From IMG/VR virus record IMGVR_UViG_2703718787_000020: 12,113 bases of DNA. The stretch is one strand, 5' to 3'. Below, piece after piece: positions 3,001 through 6,000 of this stretch; position 1 is the stretch's first letter; each line of letters begins with the position of its first letter. The position numbers are program-made. This DNA comes from a virus (taxonomy: Duplodnaviria > Heunggongvirae > Uroviricota > Caudoviricetes).

Positions 3001-6000
3001 AAATGCCTCAAGCGCAAATCGTTTTGGTCTGGTGAGAGGAGAGGGATTAAGCAAAGACTCGCGTTCCAGGCGTACTTTTTCGCGCTGGCGCTCAAGTATG
3101 GATAATGCGATTTCCTGTAATTCTTCATTTGTCATTGTCTGTACCCGTAAAGCGGTGCGCTGTAGTACCTCATATCACAGCGCAGGTATTTTTTATGGTT
3201 GTAATTTGCGTGATGATTCAGGTCGCTTTGCGACATACTGCATAAACATAAATAACGTGATGTTATTATGTGCTTTCAAAGAAAACGCAGGTATTTTTCG
3301 CACAAACTTCTCTCGCAACACATCCGACCACTTAAGCAAAAAAGCGGCATATACTGAGGCTATCCCTTATAAAACGGGGATCGGGATTACCACCCCGCAG
3401 GAGTTAGAGGCGATACACGACGCGCCAGCGTCTTTTTTTGTATCGGCGCACACGCACACCTCAACAATGGTGGGCTGTATGGGGCCGACTTCGGTCGGGC
3501 TGGTTTCCTCTAACGCCAGTTGTGGTAACCCTGTACAGTCCACCGCCAGCGAGCTTACCACCTCCGGCGGTGGGTATAATCCCAAAGTCAGAGGAGCCTT
3601 TCACATGGCTGTATCCGCACGCCCTTACTTTGTCTGGCGCTTTATGCAGTGCCTGACAGGCAGCATTGCAATATTCACCGTTACCGCTGCCACTGAGCGC
3701 GAAGCACGCGCCCAGCTGCCGCACGCACATCTGATTTTTGTCGCCCGTATCCGTCAGGAGGTGACTCATGCTTAAAACCTTCCGTGTCTTTTCCCGTGCC
3801 GTTAATGCACGCGGCTATACCGTTGGTATCTCGCAGAACGTGAAGGCCGAAAACGTCCAAGCTGCAATCAGCACAGTAATTAACAAATCAGCTAAAGCCG
3901 GTTTATCCGGCGTAATTATCCACTCCGTTCATGAAATTAAGGGGGGGCAGTAATGCAGGAAATGACACTGGCAGAAGCCTCGCTGCAAGCGCAACAGGTC
4001 GAAGTAATCAGCCGCATGATTGAACGCATGATTGAACGCAACCACGAAGAAATAGACGACCATGACCTTTCTGTTATTGCCGGACTTATCAAACAACTTT
4101 CCAGCAATGTGGCGGTGTGGTTAATGACGGAGGAAGAAAAACGCGGCGAACAATAACGGCTAAAAATAAACGGGAAATAAAGATTAAGACGACTCCTTCA
4201 GGAGATTAATTCAATGGCATCAAAAAATACTGGCTTAACTGCCAGTAGCAAAACTCACCCCGAATTCATGCGCGGGGATATTTATCGCGATAAGTACGGC
4301 GGCATCGTGACGATTATCAGCACGAGAGAACGACGTATCACCTACCGCCGTGAAGGGTATGACTATGACTGCGTGATGCCCCTGTATCAGTTCAGTCGTG
4401 ATTTTTCCCTGATGCAGGCCGTGCCATGTGGTAAGCCAGCCAGCAACGCAAAAGCAGAGGCGAACATCCGAAAGATGAAAAACATGATTAACGCATTCAG
4501 GGGCAAGAAATGAAAAGCGCACCGAATTTAAAAAAACAGCCGAAAGACAAAATGACCGAAGTCATTATCTTTGCGGGTAGTGATGCCTGGGCACATGCGA
4601 AAGAGTGGAGCGAATGGGCCGGAAAGCATATTGCAGCAGATGATACACCGCCCGTTATTCTTGGACCGAAACAACTGGCGAGCCTGGAAGACACGAAAAT
4701 CATCGATAAAGGGCGCAATTACGTGCGCGTTTATCGTGCTGGTGAAATATCAGAGACAGCACTTTTACAGATAGCAACACTGCTTGCGGTGGCGGGGGTA
4801 AAGGAGGCACGTTGCTACAGCGGCTTTGTTGACCAGCAGCCGGAGGACTGGACACCGCGCATGGCTGGACTGAAGGATGATGCGGAACGCGGCAACTGCC
4901 TGGTGATCAATCTTCCGGCAAAGACAAATTTCACCGGAAATTATGATGACGAATTAAAACCCCGCGTTGAATGCCGTCCTGATGGCGTTTACTGGGTGAC
5001 GCCAAAGGTTGATAAGCAATCTGGCGAAATTATCCGTCCGTTCGAATGGCTGTGTTCTTCCGTTGAATTACTCGGTTCAGGTGTCATTGGTAACGAGCAT
5101 TACCGCGTGATGCGCTGGACAGATTCGACAACAAATCGGCTTGTCACTATGGCTGTGCCTTGCTGCGGAATAGGCGACACTGACGGCTGGCGATTACTGA
5201 AAGCCAACGGGCTTAAAGTCACGACAAACGGAAAACACAGGATCCCCCTGGCTGACTGGATGCAGTTAGGCGGACAGCATGAGGAATGGCACTTAAGCAC
5301 GAAAGCTGGCTGGCACTTTGGCGCGTACATCATGCCGGACGGTACGGTTATCGGCGAATCTGACAAGCCCGTTTTGTTTACCGGAAAAAGTGCCGCGATT
5401 AACGGTTATTCCGTGGCAGGAACGGCGGAAAGCTGGCGCGACAGTGTGGCGCGGCTGGCTGGTGGCAATCCGTTCATGATGCTGGGTATAGCGACGTCAT
5501 TATCCGCGCCATTAGTCGGGCTGACAGGCGCTGATGGTTTTGGCGTGCATTTTTTCGAGCAATCCACAGCAGGCAAGACCACAACGCAGAGCATCGCGTC
5601 GAGCTTGTGGGGCGATCCTGAGGCGCTGCGATTAACCTGGTACGGAACGGCGCTGGGGATAGCTAACGAAGCAGAAGCACACAATCACGGACTCCTTCCA
5701 CTGGACGAGATAGGGCAGGCAGGAAGCCCCCGTGACGTGTACGTATCCTCATACACTTTGTTCAATGGATTCGGAAAATTACAGGGGGCAAAGGACGGCG
5801 GCAACAGAGAGCTGAAAAACTGGCGGACCGTTGCTATCAGCACCGGAGAGGTGGATATCGAAACATACCTCAAAACGTCGGGGATAAAAGTTAAGGTCGG
5901 GCAACTTGTGCGCCTGCTCAATATCCCGATTCAAAAAGCCACGCAGTTACACGAATACAGCAACGGAAAGGATCACGCTGACGCATTGAAGGCGGCATGG

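Follow-up and report, generated by a model that had tools for sequence, protein, structure and literature searches.

A probable RNA immunity module of the P4/P1 type in a phage-satellite island

The segment between positions 3350 and 3775 of the window, i.e., the entire 12,113-nucleotide stretch analyzed here (IMG/VR record IMGVR_UViG_2703718787_000020), appears to be a P4/P1-type RNA immunity module located in a phage-satellite island, a reading that we consider about 80% probable. The segment combines matches to two RNA families, the characteristic fold of a C4 RNA, four sites complementary to the unpaired segments of this RNA, a conserved intrinsic terminator and nested open reading frames (ORFs), and the RNA segments covary with their targets across about 100 related loci. 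A small antisense RNA of the C4/CI type that is located between two matching target sites and is accompanied by a terminator is a well-known immunity module of phages and satellites; the present copy is real but ordinary and opens no new principle. Most likely, the module keeps a gene for a cell division inhibitor and the replication genes of the island turned off. An RNA-based immunity switch thus probably governs the replication of a PerC-carrying satellite island in Shiga toxin-producing Escherichia coli.

Organization of the RNAs and open reading frames

The central component of the module is an antisense RNA of the C4/CI type (Table 1) that aligns with the complete Rfam model (positions 1-87 of 87) with a score of 77.7 bits, compared to the gathering threshold of 45, and an E-value of 3e-14. 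In this RNA, a long closing stem encloses a UUCG hairpin (CCGAC-UUCG-GUCGG, 3485-3498) and a second hairpin with b' in its loop; a' and b' are the only two long unpaired segments. The minimum free energy fold agrees with the family structure (z-score -4.15), and compensatory changes are found in 16 of the 25 stem pairs among 44 sequences, P4 included. The stem is followed by a 3' tail with a tRNA-like GCCA (3545-3548). RNAs of this family are expected to be stable molecules of approximately 77-80 nt that are processed from a longer transcript, with the 5' end produced by RNase P, and the GCCA tail is the only hint of such processing in the window. The UUCG-loop hairpin and the GC-rich stems in this region had been noticed in the initial annotation and are indeed present; they can now be identified as the C4 RNA itself together with a conserved alternative hairpin (see below). 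The immunity RNA, which had been equated with a transcript ending at 3439, maps instead downstream of the terminator.

Table 1. Features of the predicted immunity module (positions in the window)
Feature	Position	Strand	Sequence or basis
Putative -10 of an internal promoter, similar to PLE of P4 or PisrK	3350-3355	+	TATACT; alignment to relatives
IsrK/P4-seqA-like leader RNA, about 77 nt	3362-3439	+	Rfam RF01394 match
Target a1	3387-3393	+	TTACCAC; exact 7-mer complement of the C4 junction a'
Target b1	3403-3410	+	GTTAGAGG; exact 8-mer complement of the C4 loop b'
Intrinsic terminator	hairpin 3419-3432, T7 3433-3439	+	GACGC-GCCA-GCGTC plus T7; motif scan and conservation
C4/CI-type antisense immunity RNA	3463-3550	+	Rfam RF01695
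C4 segment b'	3505-3514	+	UUCCUCUAAC (RNA form CCUCUAAC); unpaired loop of hairpin 2
C4 segment a'	3521-3528	+	UGUGGUAA; unpaired junction, contains GUGGUAA
Target a2	3555-3561	+	TTACCAC; 7-mer, exact complement of a'
Right arm of the inverted repeat	3566-3573	+	GGCGGTGG; pairs with CCACCGCC (3540-3547), the 3'-terminal part of the C4 closing stem; perfect 8-bp repeat
Target b2	3587-3595	+	GTCAGAGGA; complementary to b', overlaps the Shine-Dalgarno sequence AGAGGAG (3590-3596)
Eta-like ORF, 171 aa from ATG 3260 (inferred start)	3260-3775	+	3' part of the 569-codon open frame 2066-3775
Icd/Kil-like ORF, 56 aa, nested in the Eta-like frame	3605-3775	+	NCBIfam NF033153
Next ORF, 61 aa	3768-3953	+	phrog_3672 (function not known); first small ORF toward the DUF4222 and DUF927 primase genes

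The C4 RNA is preceded by a leader that resembles IsrK and P4 seqA. The match spans the full length of the RF01394 model (positions 1-77; 3362-3438 in the window) with an E-value of 1.9e-9 and a score of 49.1 bits, 0.9 bit under the gathering threshold of 50; the corresponding RNAs of three close relatives (L002, L129 and L130) score 52-62 bits, above the threshold. The leader shows the IsrK-type architecture with three hairpins, the last one being the intrinsic terminator: hairpin 1 (3362-3381) is followed by hairpin 2 (3382-3397), which carries a1 in its loop, the single-stranded b1 and the terminator. The initial annotation correctly recognized the terminator as a stem-loop with seven T residues. 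Taken alone, this motif is not above the chance expectation (one found compared to 1.0 +/- 0.9 in shuffled sequences); it is retained in 90 of 93 related loci, with compensatory changes in the stem, and its placement is similar to that of P4 t1 and the IsrK terminator. An outer helix, seen by eye, flanks the terminator (CGATAC at 3411-3416 with GTATCG at 3440-3445), and a gap of 24 nt separates the terminator from the C4 RNA.

The putative promoter was placed solely by alignment with the relatives, in which the aligned -10 reads TATAGT, TACAGT or TATATT and precedes the first IsrK hairpin by about 7 nt. The sequence at the -35 position, ACCACT, matches poorly and is not recognizable as a -35 element, and a scan for consensus promoters between 2900 and 3900 found none. 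Transcription is expected to start at approximately 3362 and, given the conservation of the -10 at its position in Table 1, the terminated RNA would be about 77 nt long rather than the approximately 150 nt originally suggested. An additional TATAAT (3575-3580) was considered as a possible icd promoter and rejected: it is not accompanied by a -35, varies among the relatives and looks like the loop of a small hairpin.

The Eta-like ORF extends over the putative promoter and the two RNAs and also contains the nested icd/kil-like ORF. Along the 569-codon frame, residues 429-515 match Pfam Phage_ASH, residues 522-564 match the NCBIfam Icd-like model, and residues 424-569 match phrog_29966 (2e-41). 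Of 98 loci, 79% contain a stop-free frame that extends across the module, the median length being 186 codons. The codon usage of the middle part of the long frame (approximately 2550-3150) is non-coding-like, and a minus-strand ORF (2956-3135) scores better in this region, so that a full 569-aa Eta-like product appears doubtful. On the same grounds, the 546-aa ORF predicted by PGAP was rejected as a single functional protein, and only the 3'-terminal 171 codons were retained as the Eta-like ORF.

The Icd/Kil-like ORF scores 53.4 bits against its family model, with a cutoff of 25; P4 Kil belongs to the same family (73 bits). This ORF is equipped with a strong Shine-Dalgarno sequence, which is covered by b2. 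A search of genome contigs with the 56-aa sequence as the query yielded at least four loci, all weak, among the matches listed. Contrary to the original description, the interval is not devoid of convincing ORFs, as it contains the Icd-like ORF and is entirely covered by the long open frame, and the gene at 3768 is not the first one of the operon because it is preceded by the Icd-like ORF. The ATG of the gene at 3768 overlaps the icd-like stop codon (ATGCTTAA), and hence the two are probably translationally coupled. No Ant, Bro or KilA domain, as would be expected of a counterpart of P1 immI ant1/ant2, was detected in the coupled ORF, for which the phrog_3672 match is the only one.

Target sites and their covariation with the C4 RNA

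The a1 and b1 sites are located upstream, and the a2 and b2 sites downstream, of the C4 RNA, in antiparallel order, and contain exact complements of 7, 8, 7 and 6 nt, respectively. The four targets together were not encountered in any of 20,000 shuffled sequences. The pairing between b2 and b' is interrupted by a single internal C.A mismatch at 3589, leaving 6 contiguous pairs (8 of 9 overall) compared to 8-10 contiguous pairs in most of the relatives; therefore, repression might be weaker in this island.

The set of about 100 related loci, sought with a C4 DNA pattern in IMG/VR, includes 53 distinct a'/b' types, which allowed comparison of cognate and non-cognate pairs, with a cognate site defined as a complement of at least 7 nt. 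A cognate a2 site is present in 89% of the 53 types (1.5% for non-cognate pairs), b2 and b1 in 75% each (3% and 4%, respectively), and a1 in 62% (3%). Near-isogenic swaps reveal the same dependence: in an O157 relative, a1, a' and a2 are all altered together, in L129 the same is the case for b1, b' and b2, and in the Stx2a phage P13374 both sets are swapped together.

The perfect 8-bp inverted repeat reported in the initial annotation holds up as well, except that its left arm is shifted by one base relative to the reported position. Pairing of the two arms produces an alternative hairpin that displays a2 in its loop, much as hairpin 2 of IsrK does with a1, and the repeat itself covaries: 54% of 98 loci contain a complement of 7 nt or longer, compared to 1.8% of shuffled sequences. 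Because the final 8 bp of the closing stem of C4 can pair, alternatively, with the segment immediately following a2, the precursor could switch between two states, one in which C4 is fully folded and processable, and the other in which a2 is displayed for kissing. We found no description of a conformational toggle of this kind in the literature. In combination with the promoter that lacks a -35 and the mismatched b2, such a toggle could make the satellite immunity deliberately leaky or reliant on RNAs built on the same scaffold that are produced by co-resident prophages. That the repeat is part of a conserved toggle and that the immunity is leaky or dependent on such RNAs seems, on balance, rather unlikely.

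Predicted mechanism and alternative interpretations

The likely mode of action can be inferred from homology with P4, P1 and Gifsy-1, and this applies to the start of transcription, processing of the RNA, repression, the involvement of Rho and the override by translation. Transcription would be fired at about 3362 from the promoter within the Eta-like ORF, and the majority of the transcripts would end at the terminator, yielding the short IsrK/seqA-like RNA that carries a1 and b1. The read-through transcripts would carry the C4 RNA, which would be excised as a stable molecule of approximately 80 nt and, via a' and b', pair with a2 and b2, masking the ribosome-binding site of the icd/kil-like ORF. 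Failure to translate this ORF would lead to early transcription termination, so that the primase operon and the other coupled genes downstream would stay off. Pairing of the C4 RNA with a1 and b1 on nascent leaders would strengthen termination at 3439 and thus provide for autoregulation. Upon helper induction, transcription would come from upstream, on the alpA side, and ribosomes translating the long Eta-like frame would cross the targets, overriding immunity. In P4, the relevant elements are the terminators t1 and t4, the Rho-dependent timm within kil, and immunity-insensitive transcription from the upstream late promoter; the details of t1, t4, timm and the RNase P step in P4 reportedly come from work by Briani in 2000, Forti in 1999 and Hartmann in 1995.

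The same arrangement of RNAs could also accommodate a positive switch of the IsrK type, as in Gifsy-1, in which the short RNA (3362-3439) would target the read-through mRNA in trans, titrate or displace the C4 segment, and thereby open the structure and turn on translation from the conserved AUG at 3467 or that of icd. The isrK model is matched over its full length, the spacing is that of Gifsy-1, with the terminator at the same short distance from C4 and the AUG at about +106 relative to the predicted start, compared to +107 for the first AUG of orf45, and the complementarity of a1 and b1 to a' and b' corresponds to pairing like that in helix b-I (PMC4825925). However, the AUG at 3467 lacks a Shine-Dalgarno sequence, whereas icd is preceded by a strong one, which is target b2; the cargo located downstream is, like that of P4, a replication operon rather than an antirepressor; and the authors of the IsrK study could not assign a role to the C4-like STnc1160 (PMC4825925). 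Such a switch, which can coexist with the immunity mechanism, is a possibility that we entertain only tentatively. A considerably more remote interpretation is the original one taken literally, namely, an attenuator transcribed from an extended -10 at 3261-3269 that would give a small RNA of about 150-175 nt with its end at 3439, the stems farther downstream being merely mRNA structure. The motif (TGTTATTAT) is present at this position and is a reasonable extended -10, and the family-type promoter of this lineage has no -35. Nevertheless, the sequence containing this motif is specific to the lineage and missing in L129 and the Stx phage, although both retain the module, and the motif overlaps the likely start codon of the Eta-like ORF at 3260; the relatives provide no support for a promoter here, the promoter position conserved in the family placing the -10 at TATACT (3350-3355). 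Furthermore, the downstream stems belong to a high-scoring C4 RNA with which the targets covary. Taken together, these observations render the literal version very improbable.

The least plausible alternative, which can be practically discounted, is that the region is simply protein-coding and the RNA motifs are incidental. RefSeq labels it in this way (a 546-aa 'Icd-like protein' or, elsewhere, 'ash family protein'), the frame is open, and its translation matches the Pfam Ash and PHROG families. Yet the stem pairs change on both sides with the pairing kept, the loops covary with their targets as triplets, the O157 relative carries a frameshift in the T-run while all the RNA features are kept, and the codon usage over 2550-3150 is not coding-like. 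Moreover, the mechanism of P4 includes translation of this frame in addition to the RNAs, not in place of them. The RefSeq label of this stretch is thus a mis-annotation that is corrected here in favor of the RNA immunity module.

Relationship to known immunity systems and distribution of the module

The closest parallel can be drawn with P4, as the initial annotation proposed when it likened the leader to a P4-type region in which transcription terminates prematurely and a small immunity RNA acts. This comparison is borne out by the P4 immunity region itself, where the same two Rfam families are matched, with isrK/seqA (8692-8615) preceding C4/CI (8507-8420) as in the window. In P4, the order of elements is PLE - seqA - t1 - cI/CI RNA - seqC - kil nested in eta, upstream of epsilon and alpha; the terminator lies between the upstream target and the RNA, and GUGAGAA and UUCACAGG in the leader face UUCUCAC and CCUGUGAA in CI. 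Similarly, the region is located between an alpA/vis homolog and the primase operon, and overlap of the kil stop with the following gene is seen as well. The protein signature, with Ash followed by the Icd-like domain in Eta/Kil, is the same, and in the window, as in P4, a long ORF that starts ahead of the internal promoter extends through the counterparts of seqA, cI and seqC and ends as Kil. The differences include the spacer between the terminator and the RNA (about 107 nt in P4 vs. 24 nt), the enclosing frame (197-214 codons in P4 vs. 569 codons with a Rha-like N-terminus), the missing -35 and the mismatched b2 in the window, and the primase, which is of the DUF927 type. In addition, no sid, psu or delta domains, which are typical of the capsid-size and late-control genes of P4-like satellites, were found among the window ORFs; the window may hold only part of the island. 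For the P4 CI/seqA/eta/kil mechanism, we refer to the summary in PMC10111431 and to PMC4825925.

The immI region of P1 and P7 (a1 b1 - c4 - a2 b2 - icd - ant) contains an RNA of the same C4 family with two targets on each side, and there, too, b2 covers the Shine-Dalgarno sequence of an Icd-family ORF that overlaps the next gene. The mechanism of c4-icd-ant in P1 is outlined in PMC8198154, according to which heteroimmune variants differ solely in a and b. In contrast to the window, where no C1 operator context is evident, P1/P7 encode a downstream Ant antirepressor; the Icd protein of P1 consists of 73 aa compared to 56 aa, and P1/P7 are plasmid prophages rather than chromosomal satellites. 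The isrK - orf45 (STnc1160) - anrP locus of Gifsy-1 in Salmonella (PMC4825925) shares the spacing with the window and also an AUG that is conserved at the 5' end of the C4-like RNA. It further resembles what is predicted for the window in that a single promoter gives rise to both a short RNA, which is terminated, and an mRNA produced by read-through, and in that the a1 region pairs with a' in cis. In Gifsy-1, however, the short RNA activates orf45-anrP translation and there is no icd ORF, whereas the window encodes a separate Icd-like ORF, with its own Shine-Dalgarno sequence as the b2 target, and carries replication genes as the cargo.

The layout of the island, with int, alpA, an antirepressor/Ash zone, primase and PerC, is shared with Gram-negative PICIs that have C4 and isrK matches in the Bro zone (EcCIMP1, PMC11773190); a passage of PMC10111431 that reports Rfam C4 and isrK matches to PICI Bro genes describes exactly the situation in the window. 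The island itself, located at tRNA-Gly adjoining actS, has the gene order int, alpA, Bro/Ash zone, DUF927 primase, SSB, PerC and is 100% identical to STEC2018-607; we found no individual description of this island and its a/b specificity in the literature. The domains identified among the window ORFs are DUF927, SSB, ProQ/FinO, PerC (two genes) and the Q antiterminator. The ProQ/FinO protein was considered as a dedicated chaperone of the module and rejected because it co-occurs with C4 in only 2 of about 125 C4-bearing loci.

With at least 53 combinations of a/b specificities in the loci sample studied, the scaffold of the module represents a natural library that could serve to study antisense specificity and to predict which mobile elements are homo- or heteroimmune. 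The module is present in 1636 of the 5426 complete E. coli genomes, and the same scaffold is found also in Stx2a phages and P1-like plasmids.

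IsrK-like leader, C4 RNA and their target sites

The segment upstream of the replication operon matches two known RNA families, with an IsrK-like leader ending in a terminator and a C4 antisense RNA (Table). The initial annotation had proposed a P4-like layout with an immunity RNA; this proposal stands, given the C4 and isrK matches and the P4-like order, but the assignment of the RNAs, the stated RNA length, the promoter and the account of the ORFs had to be revised. The thermodynamic fold of the C4 region agrees with the Rfam C4 structure (z -4.15), and compensatory changes affect 16 of 25 stem pairs among relatives. 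The UUCG-loop hairpin noticed previously (3485-3498) is the first inner hairpin of this RNA. The isrK match comes from a more permissive Rfam scan and scores below gathering; in three close relatives, the element is above threshold (52-62 bits). Its third hairpin is the previously described terminator, GACGC-GCCA-GCGTC followed by T7 (3419-3439). Taken alone, this terminator is not above chance (1 found, 1.0 expected from shuffles); across the family, 90 of 93 loci keep a hairpin and T-run 3' of site b1, and their stems include GACGC/GCGTC, ACACGC/GCGTGT, CCGCC/GGCGG and AGCGC/GCGCT. An outer helix, CGATAC (3411-3416)/GTATCG (3440-3445), encloses the hairpin and U-run and is possible in read-through RNA alone; counterparts in relatives, judged by eye, are CGACAC/GTGTCG, CGGACG/CGTCCG and CGCAC/GTGCG.

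Features of the module and the surrounding island
Feature	Position	Strand	Remarks
Integrase	1-1254
AlpA	1798-2001
Long open frame	2066-3775		after AlpA
isrK	3362-3438	+	49.1 bits, gathering 50, E 1.9e-9, full model
a1, TTACCAC	3387-3393	+	upstream; loop of IsrK hairpin 2
b1, GTTAGAGG	3403-3410	+	upstream
C4 antisense RNA	3463-3550	+	Rfam, 77.7 bits, gathering 45
a2, TTACCAC	3555-3561	+	downstream
b2, AGAGGA within GTCAGAGGA	3587-3595	+	downstream; SD of Icd-like ORF
Icd-like ORF, 56 aa	3605-3775	+	NCBIfam 'host cell division inhibitor Icd-like', 53 bits, cutoff 25
Small ORFs, then DUF4222			3' of long frame
DUF927 primase	4510-6648		after DUF4222
SSB			3' of primase
ProQ/FinO-family RNA-binding protein	7946-8362		89 bits; 3' of primase
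PerC-family regulators (two)	8382-8675, 9593-9895		3' of primase
Q-type antiterminator	11442-11840		PF06530, 172 bits; 3' of primase

Only two long segments of the C4 RNA are unpaired, loop b' UUCCUCUAAC (3505-3514) and junction a' UGUGGUAA (3521-3528), and each has exact complements on both sides, in antiparallel order; the four sites together occur 0 times in 20000 flank shuffles. Pairing at b2 occludes the strong Shine-Dalgarno sequence, AGAGGAG, located 8 nt 5' of the Icd-like ATG. The b2 site carries a C.A mismatch at C3589, common to the O157 island and absent from the related loci L129 and L121. The perfect 8-bp inverted repeat reported earlier is present as CCACCGCC (3540-3547) with GGCGGTGG (3566-3573), one coordinate having been a base off. 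The C4 closing stem has CCACCGCC as its 3' end, and the repeat covaries across the family: complementarity of at least 7 nt to this 3' end is seen 4-5 nt beyond a2 in 54% of loci versus 1.8% of shuffles. Pairing of the repeat gives an alternative hairpin, the loop of which contains a2.

A C4-core pattern retrieved 120 IMG/VR stretches, and the analysed set comprises ~100 non-identical module-bearing loci with 21 different a', 37 different b' and 53 combinations. Complements of at least 7 nt to the cognate segment are found for a2 in 89%, b2 in 75%, a1 in 62% and b1 in 75% of cases, as compared to 1.5, 3, 3 and 4%, respectively, for non-cognate pairs. Near-isogenic comparisons support the same covariation. 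The O157:H7 island is 92-95% identical, yet a1, a' and a2 are jointly changed to TTGGCCT/AGGCCAA; L129 shows a joint change of b1, b' and b2 to GTTAACGG/CCGTTAAC; and in Stx2a phage P13374, the C4 stems are identical at 85% overall identity and both site sets differ.

In this phage, from the O104:H4 outbreak, the isrK and C4 scaffold of different specificity (2482-2669) has a good -35 (TTGACT) and lies directly 5' of an Ash-Rha 'regulator' and of antirepressor genes; an sRNA-Xcc1 Rfam match is found at 3505-3588. E. coli 2014C-3338 carries two complete immunity modules in tandem (3760-4470), each followed by an Icd-like ORF, with C4 RNAs (3864-3951 and 4326-4414) that differ in a/b specificity; in the second module, a' reads CUGCUAA and b' reads CCCAAUUUG.

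Nested open frames, putative promoter and 5' flank

The interval had been described as devoid of convincing ORFs, with position 3768 starting the first early-operon gene. Instead, it contains the Icd-like ORF and lies entirely inside a 569-codon open frame. The ATG at 3768 overlaps the Icd-like stop codon (ATGCTTAA), so that this ORF comes second in the operon and is probably translationally coupled to the first as judged from the overlap. The long frame is the longest among ~100 related loci; a stop-free frame crosses the module in 79% of 98 loci (median 186 codons). It matches Ash (residues 429-515), then Icd-like (522-564), with a weak Rha-like N-terminus, and phrog_29966 over residues 424-569 (2e-41); RefSeq labels 546 of its codons 'Icd-like protein'. 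Because codon usage is coding-like only at ~2066-2600 (the Rha-like N-terminus) and ~3150-3400, the frame looks composite, with a Bro/Rha gene, sequence antisense to small genes and an Eta-like ORF that likely starts at ATG 3260 fused into one. In the O157:H7 ATCC 43889 relative (~3830-3840), the terminator T-run is T8, not T7. The extra T shifts the Eta-like frame onto a stop codon within the C4 loop, which interrupts the long frame and leaves every RNA feature intact.

Relatives have a sigma-70 promoter ~7 nt before IsrK hairpin 1, with a -35 of CTTGAC or CTTGC, a 17-nt spacer and a -10 of TATAGT, TACAGT or TATATT. In the window, TATACT (3350-3355) occupies the -10 position and the -35 position reads only ACCACT, so that a start site near 3362 is inferred; the O157 island and L129 share this arrangement. 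The missing -35 and the b2 mismatch could weaken immunity in the window. The extended -10 motif TGTTATTAT (3261-3269) noted originally does exist but is a poor promoter candidate, being lineage-specific DNA that overlaps ATG 3260.

The 5' flank contains a diverged tandem duplication (2593-2667 versus 2959-3033; 75% identity over 75 nt, spacing 366 nt), which yields two paralogous small minus-strand ORFs, 2581-2892 and 2956-3135; neither matched a family, and the latter has the best codon-usage score in this stretch. The O157 relative has a single copy. The interval from these ORFs to the IsrK-like promoter contains an exact direct repeat of 13 nt, CGCAGGTATTTTT (3181-3193 and 3286-3298, 105 nt apart), which may be a regulator binding site. 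Finally, AGTCAGAGAAGC (2932-2943) resembles the b2/SD site AGTCAGAGGAGC (3586-3597) at 11 of 12 positions; the similarity may be due to chance or mark what is left of another module.

Comparison with P4, P1 and Gifsy-1

In the P4 genome, Rfam places isrK at 8692-8615 and C4 at 8507-8420, both within one ORF (8812-8168), which is Eta with nested Kil. Its translation matches Pfam Phage_ASH (37-161) and then NCBIfam Icd-like (161-208), the same order as in the window frame. According to PMC10111431, with reference to Forti 1999 and Sabbattini 1995, P4 transcription from an internal constitutive promoter is soon terminated via CI and seqA interactions, the CI immunity RNA is a processing product of the terminated transcript, Kil translation needs read-through, and full-length Eta translation from an upstream late promoter blocks termination. 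In P1, C4 RNA blocks icd/ant expression (PMC8198154). In Gifsy-1, one promoter yields the short IsrK RNA, which activates translation, and a read-through isrK-orf45-anrP mRNA; STnc1160, further downstream, has been compared to CI (PMC4825925). The spacing in the window (24 nt from terminator to C4; AUG at 3467, ~+106) matches Gifsy-1, not P4.

By analogy with these systems, transcription would start near 3362 and the C4 RNA would be cut from a longer transcript by RNase P, the processing reportedly described in Hartmann 1995. The C4 RNA would repress icd/kil translation, with ensuing polarity on the replication operon, and would autoregulate at the terminator, as reportedly described in Briani 2000; translation of the Eta-like frame would override immunity.

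The module is a known system: Rfam has families for its RNAs, three paradigms have been studied by experiment, and matches of Rfam C4 and isrK to Bro-zone genes of Gram-negative phage-inducible islands (PICIs) are already on record (PMC10111431). It is very common, being present in 1636 of 5426 complete E. coli genomes and also in Stx phages and P1-like plasmids. The island's copy, an immunity module of known type, has no RNA annotation and bears an erroneous protein label.

In P4, the match to Pfam PF10554 (Phage_ASH) is the eta/'cI' ORF, within which the CI RNA lies, whereas epsilon (8175-7888) matches PF25738. A survey of P4-like satellites used PF10554 as an epsilon marker (PMC8628076); this marker therefore detects the immunity-RNA region, and RefSeq 'Ash family protein' labels mark IsrK/C4 loci.

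Island setting

Positions 3100-3800 are 100% identical to E. coli STEC2018-607, where they adjoin tRNA-Gly and actS. The gene order is the one known from Gram-negative phage-inducible islands or P4-like satellites, exemplified by EcCIMP1 (PMC11773190). A link between ProQ/FinO and the C4 module is unsupported because they co-occur in just 2 of ~125 sampled loci. The isrK locus of Gifsy-1 controls a Q-like antiterminator, and the Q-type gene at 11442 is a candidate island member.
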